A DNA stretch of 64,000 nucleotides from Acidiferrobacterales bacterium (GCA_046760105.1 JBHIDJ010000006.1:3197-67196), one strand, 5' to 3'; counted from the first letter of the stretch, positions 1,578 through 31,767 are shown. Notes: generated by a model from the sequence alone, not told the origin. Numbers and translations are program-made.

Positions 1578-1961
1578 ATGATAGATCGCGGAAAATATAG
1601 CATGGATGTTTCCGTGCAAATTGCCTATCTGCCGGAGCACTCGGCGCCCGAGCAAAACCGCTACGTGTTTCGCTATACCATAACCATCGCCAACACTGGC
1701 ACGGTGCCTGCGCGGCTGCTAACACGCCACTGGATCATTACAGACGCCAACGAGAAGGTTCAGGAAGTGCGCGGAGAAGGCGTCGTGGGCCATCAGCCCT
1801 ATCTCGCGACAGGCATGACCTTCGAGTACAGGAGCGGCACCGTGATCGAGACCCCGGTGGGGACCATGCGCGGCAGCTACCAGATGGTCGCGGCTGATGG
1901 AGCGACCTTTGACGCGGAGATACCCGAGTTCGTGTTAAGCATGCCGCGCACATTGCATTAA
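1578..1961 (+). CDS. apaG: ApaG (DUF525) protein
   Basis: VSVQIAYLPEHSAPEQNRYVFRYTITIANTG...LLTRHWIITDANEKVQEVRGEGVVGHQP is the typical ApaG core. The start may be the internal ATG at 1602. Confidence 0.88.
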   Translation: MIDRGKYSMDVSVQIAYLPEHSAPEQNRYVFRYTITIANTGTVPARLLTRHWIITDANEKVQEVRGEGVVGHQPYLATGMTFEYRSGTVIETPVGTMRGSYQMVAADGATFDAEIPEFVLSMPRTLH

Positions 1962-1970
1962 TCTCGAGAG

Positions 1971-2063
1971 TCGTGAACCGTTAACCGTGAGTCGGAAAGC
2001 GTAAAGCGTGTAGATTGCGCGTCGTCGACTTGCCCCTCACGACTAACGATTAACGACTAACGA
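1971..2063. repeat. heptamer-array inverted-repeat element, TCGTGAA/..TAACGA family, copy 1
   Basis: 93 nt stay in one 7-nt register: tcgtgaa ccgttaa ccgtgag tcggaaa gcgtaaa gcgtgta gattgcg cgtcgtc gacttgc ccctcac gactaac gattaac gactaac ga. The first six units are xCGTxAx and the last four are their reverse-complement type. The element starts 10 nt after the apaG stop and ends flush with the gyrB stop (2064). Confidence 0.85.
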
Positions 2064-4502
<2,439 letters not shown>

Positions 4503-4605: not shown

Positions 4606-5694
4606 CTAGACATTGTGACCGGGATCCAGGCGCCCATGTTCCACGTGAAACACCGTGTGTGCCCGCCAGCCGGTGGTGTCGATGGCTTGCGGCTCCATTG
4701 CGGTTGCGAAGGTTTGCACACCCAGCCGTGCCATCACTGACAGCAAACGTGCACACCGTTGCGCATCGAGCTCGCCGGGAAGATCATCTAACAACAACAA
4801 ACAGCGGCGGCCGCTCTCGCGCATAAAGAGCTCGACATGGGCCAACAACAAGCTAATCACCACTAGCTTCTGCTGCCCGTGTGAAGCCGTCTCCCGCAAT
4901 GGTAGCTGATCAACGTAGACCTCCAAATCGGCCCGTTGGATGCCCGCGTGGGTAAACCCGGCGGCATAGTCGCGGGAGCGGTCATCCGCGAGCGCCGCAG
5001 CCAGGCACTTCTCTGATGGCCAGCCAGGCCGCAATTGCACGTGTACGTGCGCCTCATCAAGCAGCAGTCCCACATAGTAGGCAATACGCTCGTTCCAGGG
5101 CATTTGGTGCCGCTGCCGTAAGGCGTGTAGCTGTTCGCCTACTGTCGCGAGCGCTTGATCCCAACTGGCGAGCGCCCCCGTCGCCACGCCTTCGCGCAGC
5201 GCCGCGTTGCGCTGCCGTAGTATCCGTTGGTAGCGCGACCACAGCGGGTAGAAGTGGGGTTCCACGTGGAACAGCCCCCAGTCGAGCACACCGCGTCGGT
5301 GCTTAGCATTGTGGGTGAACAGGTGGCGCGTATCGGGCATCACCAGCTGCAAAGGCAGTGCCTGCGCAAGCGTACTCGCACTCTCGCTAGCCTCGCCGTT
5401 GACTTTGATGCGGCGCGCTCCCTGCGTACGCTCAACCCCTAGCAGGATCTCGTCGCCGCCTTCTGTCGACCCACGCCCATGCACTGTGAGGGGTCCGGCG
5501 GCACCGCGCCGGAGCAACTGACTCACGCTGCTGCTGCGGAACGAGCGGCCCCGACCGAGAATATGGATTGCCTCAAGCAGGCTCGTCTTGCCGCTGCCGT
5601 TGGGACCACAGATGACATTGAGGCCAATACTGGGCGCAAGGGTTACCTGCTCTAGGATGCGGAGGTTGTGAACCTCTAGCAAGGTGAGCGCCAT
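4606..5694 (-). CDS. recF: DNA replication and repair protein RecF
   Basis: 362 aa. N-terminal LEVHNLRIL...GPNGSGKTSLLEAI Walker A and C-terminal LLLDDLPGELD. Canonical dnaA-dnaN-recF-gyrB order. Confidence 0.95.
   Translation of the reverse strand: MALTLLEVHNLRILEQVTLAPSIGLNVICGPNGSGKTSLLEAIHILGRGRSFRSSSVSQLLRRGAAGPLTVHGRGSTEGGDEILLGVERTQGARRIKVNGEASESASTLAQALPLQLVMPDTRHLFTHNAKHRRGVLDWGLFHVEPHFYPLWSRYQRILRQRNAALREGVATGALASWDQALATVGEQLHALRQRHQMPWNERIAYYVGLLLDEAHVHVQLRPGWPSEKCLAAALADDRSRDYAAGFTHAGIQRADLEVYVDQLPLRETASHGQQKLVVISLLLAHVELFMRESGRRCLLLLDDLPGELDAQRCARLLSVMARLGVQTFATAMEPQAIDTTGWRAHTVFHVEHGRLDPGHNV
4637..4652. other. parS centromere-like site (ParB binding)
   Basis: TGTTCCACGTGAAACA fits the 16-bp parS consensus TGTTNCACGTGAAACA at all specified positions. 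Lies inside the recF 3' end, origin-proximal, with parAB in the same window. Confidence 0.6.
5258..5273. other. second parS-like palindrome
   Basis: GGTTCCACGTGGAACA matches the fully palindromic variant TGTTCCACGTGGAACA at 15 of 16 positions. Lies inside recF. Confidence 0.4.
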
Positions 5695-5725
5695 GGGTAC
5701 AGCGGTGTTGCCCTGCCATGCGCCT

Positions 5726-6826
5726 TCACAAGCGCATGGGCATGACGACGTAGCGCGTATCTTGCTTGCCCGGTGCCTGTAACGTGCAGCTGCTATTGGC
5801 GTCGTTCATAGCGAGCTGTACTTCTTCCCCTTCAAGGCCATTGATGGCATCAATAACATAGTTCACATTGAAACCGATCTCGACGTCCTCCCCTTCATAG
5901 CCGATCGGCACGGCCTCCTCGGCCTCTTCCTGCTCTGGGTTGTGTGCAGTGATCGTGAGATTCCCCGACTGTATAGTGAAGCGTACACCACGATACTTTT
6001 CATTCGCCAAGATGGAGGCGCGTGTTAGTGCCTCACGTAGTACGCCGCGGTCCACGCGGATGATTTTTTGATAGGCGGCCGGTATCACTTGGTTATAGTC
6101 TGGGAAACGTCCGTCGATTAACTTCGCTGTCAGCGTAATGTCCTTGGCGCGCACCTGTGCGTGATTATTGCTCAGCCGTGCCTCCACTTCTTCCGGGGCA
6201 TTGCTAAGAAAACGCACCATCTCTAATACACCTTTGCGCGGCACAATAGCCTGTCGATCACCATCCTGCCCTGTCCCTAAACTAAACTCACTAATACCCA
6301 TGCGGTGCCCGTCGGTTGCGACCGCCCGCACCCGTGCCCCACTCAGTTCCAGTAATACGCCATTTAAGTAGTACCGGACATCTTGGTGTGCCATACAAAA
6401 CTGGGTGCGTTCTAGCAGCCGCTTCAGCGCTTCCTCTGGCAGCTTAAACGTGACATCCCACCCTCCGACCTCCACGTTGGGAAAATCTGCCACAGGCAAC
6501 GTCAGCAGGGTGAATCGGCTCCTGCCTGAGCGAATCACGACTCGCTCACCTTCTTGTTTGATCTCTAACTCAGCGCCACCCGGCAGCGCTCGGCATATAT
6601 CAAAGAGCTTGCGCGCAGGAATGGTTACCGCGCCCCCCTCGGCTGCGCCGGCGTTCGTTGTCGCCACCACCTCAATCTCCAGGTCGGTGCCTGTGAGCTG
6701 CAGTCCCGTCCCGTTTGACTGCACCAATATATTCGAGAGGATCGGCAACGTTTGCCGCCGCTCGACGACACCAGCAACGTGGCTTAGCGGTTTGAATAAA
6801 TCATCGCGATTGATGCGAATCTCCAT
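5726..6826 (-). CDS. dnaN: DNA polymerase III beta sliding clamp
   Basis: MEIRINRDDLFKPLSHVAGVVERRQTLPILSNILV...VMPMRL. Start moved to ATG 6826; the track ORF is extended 9 codons upstream. Confidence 0.96.
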   Translation of the reverse strand: MEIRINRDDLFKPLSHVAGVVERRQTLPILSNILVQSNGTGLQLTGTDLEIEVVATTNAGAAEGGAVTIPARKLFDICRALPGGAELEIKQEGERVVIRSGRSRFTLLTLPVADFPNVEVGGWDVTFKLPEEALKRLLERTQFCMAHQDVRYYLNGVLLELSGARVRAVATDGHRMGISEFSLGTGQDGDRQAIVPRKGVLEMVRFLSNAPEEVEARLSNNHAQVRAKDITLTAKLIDGRFPDYNQVIPAAYQKIIRVDRGVLREALTRASILANEKYRGVRFTIQSGNLTITAHNPEQEEAEEAVPIGYEGEDVEIGFNVNYVIDAINGLEGEEVQLAMNDANSSCTLQAPGKQDTRYVVMPMRL

Positions 6827-27008: not shown

Positions 27009-27869
27009 ATGGCGGTCGGTAGAGAGATACGAAAAAAGATCAAGAGCATCCAGAACACGCAAAAGATTACGCGTGCGATGGAGATGGTAGCGGCAAGCAA
27101 AATGCGCCGGGCGCAAGAGCGTATGAGTGCCGCCCGACCGTATGCCGACAAGATGCGCAATGTCATCGGCCATCTGCACCATGCGCATCCTGAATACCGA
27201 CACCCATTTTTCACGGAGCGCGAGGCCAAGAACGCAGGTCTCATCGTTGTGACCACGGATCGTGGTTTGTGCGGTGGACTCAATACTAATGCGTTGCGTA
27301 CGGCGCTCGAAACGATGAGAGAGTGGGACAAAAGGAACGTCAGCACTCAGCTGTGCTGCATCGGCACCAAGGGTTTAACGTTTTTCCGGCGCATCGGCGC
27401 AAACATCCGTTCGGAAGTTACCCACCTCGGCGATACGCCGCGGGTGGAAGACCTTATCGGTACCGTCAAGGTGATGTTGGATGCGTACGTCGACTCAGCC
27501 ATTGATCGCCTACACATCGTTTACAGTCATTTCATAAATACTATGAGCCAGCGGCCAGTGATCGAACAGCTATTGCCGCTTCCAGGAACGGAGGAAGAAG
27601 AGCTGACACATTACTGGGATTATATCTATGAGCCGGACGCGCAAGAGGTTGTCGATGATCTGTTGCGGCGTTACATTGAAGCGCTGATCTATCATGCTGT
27701 AGTCGAGAATCTGGGGTGCGAGCAGTCGGCGCGCATGGTCGCGATGAAGTCGGCCTCGGACAATGCGGGCAAACTTATCGACGAGTTTACGTTGAAATAT
27801 AACAAGGCGAGGCAGGCGGCGATTACACAAGAGATTTCCGAGATCGTCGCTGGCGCAGCAGCCGTCTAA
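27009..27869 (+). CDS. atpG: F0F1 ATP synthase subunit gamma
   Basis: [32 protein letters not shown] and C-terminal [20 protein letters not shown]. Confidence 0.97.
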
Positions 27870-27870
27870 A

Positions 27871-27967
27871 AGTCTAGTTGCAAGTAGCAAGTGGCAAGCG
27901 ACAAGGAGCAGGCCAGGAACAGGGACCATGTCCGGTTTTTCTTGCTACTTGAAACTTGCTACTCGCT
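27871..27967. repeat. heptamer-array inverted-repeat element, GCAAGTA/CTTGCTA family, copy 1 (atpG-atpD spacer)
   Basis: Left units are ttgcaag tagcaag tggcaag cgacaag gagcagg. Right units are tcttgct acttgaa acttgct actcgct. A perfect 11-bp inverted repeat pairs caagtagcaag (27881-27891) with cttgctacttg (27941-27951). Starts 2 nt after the atpG stop and ends 3 nt before the atpD SD AAGGAGG. Confidence 0.85.
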
Positions 27968-27971
27968 GTAA

Positions 27972-29356
<1,385 letters not shown>

Positions 29357-29357
<1 letters not shown>

Positions 29358-29449
29358 AAAGCAGTAGCAAGCGCCAAGTAGCAAGTGACAAGTGAAACAC
29401 CCAAATTTGGTTTTCTTGCTACTTCACAGTTGAAACTTGAGACTTAGTT
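29357..29449. repeat. heptamer-array inverted-repeat element, GCAAGTA/CTTGCTA family, copy 2 (atpD-atpC spacer)
   Basis: Left units are gtagcaa gcgccaa gtagcaa gtgacaa gtgaaac. The centre holds the 10-bp palindrome ccaaatttgg. Right units are ttcttgc tacttca cagttga aacttga gacttag. Inverted repeat aagtagcaag (29376-29385) with cttgctactt (29415-29424). Fills the spacer from the atpD stop to the atpC ATG. Confidence 0.85.
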
Positions 29450-29872
29450 ATGGCGATGACCATGCATGTGGATATCGTGAGCGCCGAAGAGGAAATCTAC
29501 TCGGGCACGGCAGAAATGGTGTTCGCGCCTTTGGCGACAGGCGAGGTGGGGATACTGCCGCGCCACGCGCCGCTGATCGCGCGTATGAGGCCGGGCGAAG
29601 TGCGCGTGCGCAAGGGTGGTGAGGACCAGTTTTTCTATGTCTCGGGTGGGCTGCTAGAGGTACAGCCGCATGTTGTGACGGTGCTTTCGGATACGGCGGT
29701 ACGCGCCAAAGATCTCGATGAGGCGGCTGCGGTAGAAGCCCAGCGCCGAGCGGAGGAGGCGCTCAAAGACAGAAAAGCGGACATCGATTATGCCAGGGCG
29801 CAGGCAGAGTTAATCGAGGCCACCGCCCAACTACGCATGATTCGTCGCCTGCGCGAGAAGCTCAAGAAATAG
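29450..29872 (+). CDS. atpC: F0F1 ATP synthase subunit epsilon
   Basis: [43 protein letters not shown], the typical epsilon N-terminus. Confidence 0.95.
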
Positions 29873-31570: not shown

Positions 31571-31759
31571 GCCGTGTATCATGACTCGTGAAACCGTGAG
31601 TTGTGAACCGTGGATTGGGTAGCAAGGGAAGGCTCACAGTTGTGCATCAAGACGCTCCTGATTAGTTGCTTACGACTAACGAATCACGAATTACGACTCA
31701 CGACTAATGACTAACAACTCGCGAATTACGACTCACAAATCACAACTAACGACTTACGA
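31564..31759. repeat. heptamer-array inverted-repeat element, TCGTGAA/..TAACGA family, copy 3 (largest; glmU-glmS spacer)
   Basis: The right arm is 13 contiguous heptamers at 31669-31759: cttacga ctaacga atcacga attacga ctcacga ctaatga ctaacaa ctcgcga attacga ctcacaa atcacaa ctaacga cttacga. The left arm at 31564-31613 carries the complementary word: atcgtga gccgtgt atcatga ctcgtga aaccgtga gttgtga accgtgg. It spans from the glmU stop to the glmS SD. Confidence 0.9.
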
Positions 31760-31767
31760 GGTGTACT

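Follow-up and report, generated by a model that had tools for sequence, protein, structure and literature searches.

The 64,000-nt stretch of an Acidiferrobacterales bacterium analysed here (GCA_046760105.1 JBHIDJ010000006.1:3197-67196, "the window"; coordinates count from its first letter) contains, between the ATP synthase genes atpD (beta subunit) and atpC (epsilon subunit), a spacer filled by a hairpin of 7-nt repeats, designated E2. The element in the atpG-atpD spacer of the same operon was designated E1, and comparison contigs and loci were given L-numbers. E2 belongs to a family of CAAGT/ACTTG heptad-repeat hairpins, stands in place of a spacer containing a Shine-Dalgarno (SD) sequence, and only a weak stem of it is conserved. 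On balance, we think it probable that E2 is a partly decayed copy of a lineage-wide, structure-maintained intergenic heptad hairpin, with a generic and probably mild effect in the atp mRNA, and is not a device for setting the beta:epsilon ratio.

As the first-pass annotation had reported, the left arm of E2 read gtagcaa (29364-70), gcgccaa (29371-77), gtagcaa (29378-84), gtgacaa (29385-91) and gtgaaac (29392-98), and the right arm ttcttgc (29413-19), tacttca, cagttga, aacttga and gacttag (29441-47), followed by tt and the ATG of atpC (29450); the palindrome ccaaatttgg lay between them at 29401-10. The 10-mer AAGTAGCAAG (29376-85) had its exact complement at 29415-24, and the same pair recurred in E1 (27882-91 and 27941-50), again as had been noted. 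With at most one mismatch the 10-mer matched 10 times in the window against 2.3 expected, and none of 100 shuffles reached 10. In a sliding self-match scan over lags across the 64 kb, strong signals were found only at lags 7 and 14 and only at four elements (1963-2080, 27868-27917, 29356-29397 and 31661-31765); Tandem Repeats Finder (TRF) gave a period of 14 with 2.2 copies at 29363-29393. The presence of the atp strings and the confinement of the lag-7/14 signal to four sites indicated that the observation was real and non-random. The first unit of the E2 array lay 4 nt past the atpD stop codon and the last about 5-7 nt short of the atpC ATG. Four of the five 3' cores (TCTTG, ACTTC, AGTTG, ACTTG, ACTTA) carried a point change, and TAG or TGA stop triplets occurred in more than one phase of the 5' arm.

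The median length of the atpD-atpC spacer in 78 related gammaproteobacterial loci was 20 nt, against 92 nt in the window, essentially all of it element. Upstream of atpC a GAGA was present at 29439-42 (-11 to -8), and the only SD-like sequence was its GAG (29439-29441, -11 to -9), inside the last E2 units, so the earlier remark that atpC lacks a proper SD was borne out. Contigs from this population that match the window exactly over the two atp spacers gave the Pfam order alpha, gamma, beta, epsilon, GlmU, GlmS; the AtpC N-terminus MAMTMHVD was kept in relatives, and the window's AtpC carries the protein-cluster name Acidiferrobacterales. E1 and E2 were identical in four assemblies of the window population, with no variation in unit number. 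Short-read assemblies of the same population stopped inside E2 or at its edge, 20 nt (L204, 1-20) and 1 nt (L205, 1) upstream of atpC, which fits assembly breaks at a dispersed repeat.

Metagenomes were scanned with the pattern AAGTAGCAAG-N25-55-CTTGCTACTT. At least 120 contigs with a CAAGT/ACTTG hairpin were recovered, nearly all with the motif recurring at 7- or 14-nt steps on both arms. The unit comprised five fixed and two free bases, CAAGT+NN in the 5' arm and NN+ACTTG in the 3' arm, with about four units per arm, and the centres were unrelated to one another across E1, E2 and the copies from metagenomes. The taxonomy of the family was read from the names of ten flanking proteins (exact look-up), and named genomes were covered via their atp loci. 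The flanking proteins were named Ca. Muproteobacteria, Sulfuricaulis or Acidiferrobacterales, the exceptions being one unspecific Gammaproteobacteria and one Burkholderiales, and among 80 GTDB atp loci from other gammaproteobacteria the motif was found only in L009; for these two reasons the family looks like a lineage trait. With all heptamer families taken together there were 58 inverted array pairs; in 51 the G-rich arm was 5', and the order CTTG...CAAG was seen in none of the 58, the CAAGT copies having been pre-selected in CAAG-first order by the search pattern. No paper on the repeat strings, or on repeats in Sulfurifustis or Sulfuricaulis, was found in open-access text.

Gene contexts of the copies were assigned with a heuristic open reading frame (ORF) caller. 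The contexts were co-directional in 65 cases, convergent in 21 and divergent in 13, roughly as intergenic regions are distributed in a genome. Among 73 cases, most arrays started -3 to 8 nt from the upstream stop codon, and on 52 of about 91 sides facing a gene start the array ended at most 16 nt from the start codon, distances of 7-13 nt being the commonest, with typical ends such as ...CTTGGAACTGAATTT-ATG and ...ACTGAGGTTAT-ATG. Of 46 adjacent starts, 4 had an SD 4-mer ahead of them; control genes of these contigs had one in 26-39% of cases, a frequency that depends on uncertain start calls. Conserved junctions included S14-S8, tuf-S10, nrdR, glmS, carB and xthA/pyrE. The downstream genes were ordinary core genes, encoding S8, S10, L3, NrdR, GlmS, CarB, PyrE, an exonuclease III-like protein and SpeA/SpeE, and further SecD/YajC, GcvP, RNase G, FabD and CysS. 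These results showed that family elements fill the stop-to-start space, in place of the ordinary short SD-containing spacer.

Seventeen orthologous groups of contigs had an element at the same junction, and orthologous junctions kept it though the coding flanks were only 70-80% identical. Random non-orthologous family members served as background for element identity (median 0.82, 95th percentile 0.90, 99th percentile 0.93). Five of 15 orthologous pairs reached 0.94-0.97, centre included, against 0.72-0.93 for their flanks and above the 99th percentile of the background, and a sixth pair, with close flanks, reached 0.98. In the xthA-like/pyrE pair L138/L156 the element was 0.96 identical and the flanks 0.79-0.80; at very short distance the element changed faster than its flanks (L140/L159, 0.87 vs 0.98). 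The free NN positions were complementary between the arms at 0.768, against 0.727 expected (z = 3.4), and the two arms were of nearly equal length (4.0 vs 4.15 units). In the E1 orthologues of L208, L209 and L211, 111 nt long as in the window, CAAG to CGAG changes on the left were matched by CTTG to CTCG changes on the right in several units, and five copies at the lptE junction had a common consensus hairpin of 38 pairs. Sense RNA folded better than antisense, with more G-U pairs, in 42 of 65 co-directional copies (42 vs 23, p = 0.007). Given the orthologous positions, the above-background identity, the NN complementarity and the paired CAAG/CTTG changes, the family does not look like unconstrained junk, and several lines indicate that its paired structure is maintained. 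The earlier suggestion of selection rather than random insertion is thus partly supported for the family (orthologous junctions, NN complementarity) and not supported for E2 itself, which is decayed and barely folds.

Fold significance was assessed as minimum free energy (MFE) against dinucleotide shuffles. The MFE of E2 was -22.3 kcal/mol against -20.0 for the shuffles (z = -0.8). Its arms (29363-85 and 29415-37) were 74% complementary over 23 nt, and only 29415-29424 paired well with the 5' arm; about half of the atpC translation-initiation region was paired in the ensemble. The atpD-atpC copies of the window, L212 and L009 had a common stem of only 12 bp (AGTAGCAAGTGA and its partner), beyond which some 27 nt of 3' units stayed unpaired up to the AUG, and no compensatory double changes were seen among these three copies. 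E1 and E2 were 0.82 identical, the median of random non-orthologous members: the claim that they are sister elements holds as far as both belong to one family, and an especially close kinship was rejected. RNA-level selection on E2 itself was not supported, the antisense fold being better and the local atp/glm set mixed. E2 is a partly decayed, ordinary and rather worn copy, and the interest lies in the family.

Several points weigh against taking E2 as a member of a structure-maintained family that acts in mRNA. Only contigs with exact 10-mers in both arms entered the metagenome sample, and all placement counts rest on the heuristic ORF caller. The repeats raise the identity of any two family members (unrelated median 0.82), so that the 0.87 between E2 and L009 cannot prove orthology; orthology by identity was rejected here, as 0.87 lies inside the background (95th percentile 0.90), and only the position counts. 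The sense-strand bias could stem from strand-biased C-to-T mutation; it was not seen in the local atp/glm set, and E2 folded better as antisense (-23.2 vs -20.3). Locus-specific centres are not predicted by a simple copy-and-paste element. Quasi-palindrome template switching could maintain complementarity without selection, and both transcription through E2 and any RNA processing are steps that we infer.

Template switching that holds the arms complementary also belongs to a different explanation, in which the hairpins are selfish or neutral DNA palindromes (REP/REPIN-like, resembling miniature transposable elements with inverted repeats (MITEs), or quasi-palindromes grown by slippage), tolerated in spacers and without a role in atp expression. 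Placement near that of random intergenic DNA (65:21:13), the presence, absence and replacement of elements among close relatives, the look of E2 and of a remnant in L206 as decaying copies, and assemblies breaking inside E2 as at a repeat all agree with it, and GTAG/GTGG, which recurs in every unit, presumably recalls the REP 5' tetranucleotide. It sits poorly with centres unique to each locus and with copies that stay at the same junction while the flanks diverge to 70-80%, some of them, as in L138/L156, far above flank conservation with the centre included. Nor does it readily explain elements that replace the SD-containing spacers of essential genes (S8, L3, S10) and in one case even appear to be read as the signal peptide of LptE (see below). 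No transposase turned up, though none was searched for. No target-site duplication was seen at the borders of E1 and E2, and family ends were heterogeneous after ...ACT; without target duplications and without a common internal sequence across E1, E2 and the metagenomic copies, a MITE was rejected. We regard a neutral palindrome as possible, with rather limited credence.

For the structure-maintained hairpin that we favour, the following mechanism is proposed. Complementarity of the arms would be due to selection for pairing, to arm-to-arm template-switch correction, or to both, with unit number and the two free positions drifting. A terminator scan found no terminator-like site (G+C-rich stem with a T/U run) and a promoter consensus scan found nothing at E1 or E2; E2 would therefore be transcribed within the polycistronic atp mRNA. 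Its RNA may form the short conserved stem of about 12 bp, then about 27 nt of pyrimidine-rich units leading to the SD-poor atpC start. The stem-loop could serve as a generic intercistronic structure, a barrier or cleavage site for RNases (RNase III or 3'-exonuclease type), and initiation at atpC would rely on the weak GAG and on atpD terminating close by. RNase III processing is the most concrete candidate mechanism, because the hmw1A hairpin, which is cleaved by RNase III, is the sole experimentally studied analogue and to our knowledge the only experimentally dissected heptamer-repeat locus. Translational coupling by hairpin opening gained little support: with a modelled ribosome at the upstream stop in 16 family cases, the paired fraction of the start region went only from 0.62 to 0.53, because the repeated arms re-pair in another register.

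The unpaired 3' units before SD-poor starts could also be functional in themselves. The pyrimidine-rich 3' array, (CUUGNNA)n, would then serve the ribosome (protein S1), or a heptad-binding protein of cold-shock type, as a landing pad that needs no SD, an idea already put forward for the TAACTGA repeats of Beggiatoaceae; the 5' arm would mask it. Arrays end 2-13 nt from SD-poor starts, the roughly 27 nt of 3' units in E2, L212 and L009 are free before the AUG, and in divergent pairs each transcript would carry only the 3' arm. Many family arrays also end ...NNACTGA, and one ends in TAACTGA itself, a repeat of which 132 of 170 sets face a start codon without a ribosome-binding site (RBS) (MacGregor 2015, PMC4679880). 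A longer start-proximal arm, expected if the free 3' units were the working part, was not found: the arms were balanced in unit number (4.02 vs 4.15 units, p = 0.8). Elements are equally common without a following start, for example in the 21 convergent contexts, the SD depletion is measured against a control that rests on uncertain start calls, and we know of no heptad-binding protein for CAAGT/ACTTG arrays. A landing pad is therefore considered unlikely. The array ending in TAACTGA is the tuf-rpsJ element of L085 (~5690-5740, minus strand), which ends in three TAACTTG units and then TAACTGA-GTTTAAC-ATG, its last unit being the Beggiatoaceae TAACTGA repeat.

In two divergent gene pairs one heptad hairpin made up the whole intergenic region, 2-10 nt from each start. 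These were the exonuclease III-like (xthA-like)/pyrE pair (L138 1577-1645, with L156 and L165) and the speA/speE pair (L140 4566-4621, with L159). Since the element is the entire intergenic region there, both promoters must lie inside it.

Promoters inside these divergent elements are one argument for an internal promoter in E2 as well, from which a near-leaderless atpC transcript would start. The heptad geometry (TTGNNA, 17 nt, G-NN-ACT; 23 = 3x7+2) has sigma-70-like spacing, and E2 and L009 both read TTGCTA, 17 nt, GAGACT and then 4-5 nt to the ATG. The hexamers match at only 4/6 and 3/6 positions, L212 reads GGAACT at the -10 position, the promoter scan was negative at both atp elements, and an operon-internal gene needs no promoter of its own. 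We consider this explanation highly improbable.

The first-pass annotation had called two elements flanking atpD within one operon unusual and suggestive of selection, for example to insulate the atpD mRNA or tune the beta:epsilon ratio. On such a view E1 and E2 would be selected specifically in the atp operon as a bracket around atpD that keeps a processed atpD segment stable or sets the beta:epsilon ratio. The atp junctions of relatives bear on this. At atpD-atpC, the CAAGT family was present in the window, in L212 (AtpC 87%, array ending CTTGGAACTGAATTT-ATG), in L009 (70%) and, as a right-arm remnant, in L006; L207-L211 (AtpC 90-92%) carried a CGTGAGG/CCTCAC family, L001 (91%) a hairpin of an 8-nt unit and L206 (94%) a degenerate 117-nt spacer, and L213 and L214 had no element (spacers of 20 and 17 nt). 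At atpG-atpD, CAAGT-type elements were found in the window, L208, L209, L211 and L213, a left-arm remnant with the interior deleted in L206, and nothing recognisable in L001, L207, L210 and L212 (the L207 and L210 spacers were not analysed further). At glmU-glmS, the window and most relatives (L206, L208-L212) had a CGTGA type, and L095, whose GlmS is closest to that of the window (71%), a CAAGT type. Conservation in position across relatives, which the first-pass annotation had considered, was thus found insofar as the same junctions hold heptad hairpins, but family and presence varied. The atp and glm junctions are long-standing sites of heptad hairpins; organisms with one and the same gene order differ in family, decay state and presence, which speaks against a role that is atp-specific and indispensable.

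A selected atpD bracket would draw on the recurrence of varied, unrelated hairpins in the atpG-atpD and atpD-atpC spacers of related gammaproteobacteria (at least 45 nt in 18 of 78 loci, at least 80 nt in 17 of 66) and on the strong fold of E1, in which the atpD SD is paired to bases just past the atpG stop, like a coupling switch. The same family occupies many unrelated junctions, however, relatives whose atp genes are ordered alike have other families or are missing one element or both, glmU-glmS spacers are hairpin-filled just as often as atp ones, E2 barely folds, and the modelled ribosome hardly opens the start region. Four heptamer hairpins per 64 kb also make two copies in one operon unremarkable. 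Insulation of atpD or tuning of the beta:epsilon ratio is accordingly judged quite improbable.

Two relatives showed further states of these junctions. In L206 (1949-1996, atpG-atpD) only the start of the left arm and the right tail were left (GACAGTGGAAAGTAGCGAGGAAAACAAG / CTCATTTGAGG), which looks like an internal deletion of the hairpin. The atpD-atpC hairpin of L001, the closest named genome (Ca. Muproteobacteria SZUA-472), spans 3888-4000, folds at -51.5 kcal/mol and has the unit ACGCAAAG / CTTTGCGT. In other gammaproteobacteria, unrelated G+C-rich hairpins were seen in the atpD-atpC spacer (L006, L016, L031, L024, L029, L038, L065, L067 and L072) and likewise in the atpG-atpD spacer; both junctions are generally permissive or favoured stem-loop sites.

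The features of the window are listed in Table 1.

Table 1. Positions of the heptamer hairpins and of atpD and atpC in the window
Feature	Position	Strand	Remarks
CGTGA/TCACG-type heptamer hairpin	1962..2063	.	fills gap between convergent genes
E1, same-family hairpin filling the atpG-atpD spacer	27870..27980	+	arms 27880-27905 and 27941-27966; TRF periods 7/14 at 27876-98
atpD (ATP synthase beta)	27981..29357	+	stop TAG 29355-29357; ORF list; Pfam ATP-synt_ab on contig identical across both atp spacers
E2, CAAGT/ACTTG heptad-repeat hairpin, entire 92-nt atpD-atpC spacer	29358..29449	+	
E2 5' arm, about 5 CAAGT+NN units (CAGTAG, CAAGCGC, CAAGTAG, CAAGTGA, CAAGTGA)	29362..29398	+	direct reading; TRF
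E2 centre, with palindrome CCAAATTTGG at 29401-29410	29399..29412	+	locus-specific, absent from other copies
E2 3' arm, 5 NN+ACTTG units	29413..29447	+	direct reading
atpC (epsilon)	29450..29872	+	ORF list; start MAMTMHVD conserved
glmU-glmS spacer (197 nt), second heptamer family, CGTGA+NN then NN+TCACG	31571..31767	+	12.6 units on 3' arm

E1 was well folded (-42.5 kcal/mol, z = -3.46). At its predicted stem base the atpD SD (AAGGAGG) pairs with 11 nt after the atpG stop (27872-27882 with 27967-27977), a modelled geometry like that of a translational-coupling switch. The McCarthy laboratory reportedly described such a switch of atpHA type, in which the start is sequestered by pairing near the upstream stop and opened by the terminating ribosome.

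Two of the four heptamer hairpins in the window had the second core, CGTGA+NN / NN+TCACG. The last unit of the glmU-glmS hairpin runs into the glmS SD (ACGAGGT). The hairpin at 1962-2063 lies between an apaG-like gene (1578-1961, plus strand) and a GyrB/ParE-type topoisomerase gene (2064-4493, minus strand), the latter named from its translation only; the hairpin folds at -37.2 kcal/mol on the plus strand and -40.3 kcal/mol on the opposite strand, without a U-tract. An Rfam scan of 22-32 kb gave nothing relevant, the only hit being a chance RNase_MRP match inside atpD (E = 0.044, far under the gathering score).

Heptameric repeats are over-represented in bacterial intergenic DNA but poorly understood, and several known kinds resemble the CAAGT family in part. 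In Xanthomonas, each genome has 70-75 pairs of GGGAATC repeats in convergent (inverted) orientation (Rehm et al. 2015, PMC4692102). Like the CAAGT family they are gammaproteobacterial, intergenic, tandem 7-nt units, often in inverted arrays able to form a stem-loop, and they keep their place from one related genome to another while the repeats vary in length (PMC4692102). They differ in their lineage and in a G-rich, quadruplex-forming unit, CAAGT+NN having no G-tracts, and stop-to-start filling, SD depletion and a 5+2 unit are not reported there (PMC4692102). Several distinct heptamer families per genome, intergenic and intercistronic, also occur as the STRR of the cyanobacteria Calothrix and Nostoc, as far as they are described in that paper (via PMC4692102). 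The STRR belong to another phylum, have other units and are mostly direct arrays. They are said to include heptamers in the Anabaena atpB-atpE spacer. E2 shares with inverted heptamer arrays the tandem 7-nt units, the intergenic position and the partly complementary arms, and its unit is neither GGGAATC nor STRR1-3.

TAACTGA direct repeats occur in Beggiatoaceae, some cyanobacteria and Bacteroidetes, with an inverted partner in 1 of 170 sets (MacGregor 2015, PMC4679880). They and the CAAGT family are alike in having about one G per unit, stop triplets in the units, and arrays just upstream of RBS-less starts, including those of ribosomal-protein genes. The TAACTGA arrays are direct repeats of another unit, whereas the CAAGT 3' array is always paired with a complementary 5' array. 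E2 agrees in placement, its array ending 7 nt before the ATG with only the weak GAG between -11 and -9, and differs in its unit and in having a partnered array.

In the 5' untranslated region of Haemophilus influenzae hmw1A, (ATCTTTC)n forms an arm of an RNA hairpin; expression is controlled through cleavage of this hairpin by RNase III, and changes in repeat number require the hairpin (Rapun-Araiz et al. 2025, PMC12721329). As in the CAAGT family, heptamer repeats form a hairpin arm just upstream of a gene, transcription of the CAAGT copies being our inference. The hmw1A hairpin is a single phase-variable locus in which the pyrimidine repeat is the 5' arm and its partner a non-repeat G-rich tract; in the CAAGT family both arms are arrays, the purine-rich arm is 5', the loci are many, and unit number did not vary among the four assemblies. 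A stable long hairpin of hmw1A type is predicted for E1 (z = -3.5), and for E2 a weak one (z = -0.8) with a 12-bp consensus stem.

REP, BIME and REPIN elements are abundant extragenic imperfect palindromes with a GT(A/G)G motif, transcribed within operons, where they stabilise upstream mRNA segments. Each REP repeat is an imperfect palindrome of 20-40 nt, whereas the CAAGT arm is a direct heptamer array that is not palindromic, around a locus-specific centre. By sequence the CAAGT family is not a member of the Xanthomonas, STRR or TAACTGA repeats, and the features tested do not place it among REP elements, MITEs, terminators or Rfam families. Several traits seem to be new: a unit of five fixed and two free bases, a constant order of the arms, filling of the space from stop to start ahead of SD-poor genes in core operons, exchange of heptamer families at a single junction, and an element that serves as coding sequence.

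With a single design repeated at many conserved junctions of essential operons, the family supplies natural replicates, in a lineage with the cultured members Sulfuricaulis and Sulfurifustis. Its features can be tested: the arms come in a strict order, the elements reach from stop to start, the starts are poor in SD sequences, and changes in one arm are compensated in the other. Should the hairpins act at the RNA level, they would show how translation-initiation regions throughout a genome can be taken over by a repeat family; if not, this is a clean case of palindromes held complementary by mutation alone. For annotation, the family accounts for long atp, glm and ribosomal-operon spacers, for contig breaks there and for starts miscalled at TTG triplets in arrays. 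A broader, genome-wide system in Acidiferrobacterales/Muproteobacteria, which we put forward as doubtful, would have heptad hairpins of the 5+2 design, always with the purine-rich arm 5', replacing the spacers and 5' leaders of core genes (ribosomal-protein, atp, sec, nrdR, glmS) as a common post-transcriptional module. Each hairpin would provide an SD-independent start masked or unmasked by the complementary arm, an RNase III site, or both, and a putative conserved heptad-recognising factor would read them. Slippage and arm-to-arm correction would renew the hairpins, which would be flexible enough to hold promoters between divergent genes and to encode the LptE signal peptide.

At the lptE junction, the LptE frame was open through the whole hairpin in five orthologous contigs (L101 654-748, L193 1722-1809, L190 2756-2850, L183 3505-3592 on the minus strand and L113 3067-3161 on the minus strand), with a conserved lipobox, ...SCGFHLRG. 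The purine arm encodes the polar, basic stretch VASSKWQVASK and the pyrimidine arm the hydrophobic core and lipobox, LFLLLATCxLLLxSC; with the frame open and the arms encoding these parts, the element appears, from its translation, to be read as a lipoprotein signal peptide. In L101 the lptE ATG overlaps the upstream stop codon (ATGA).

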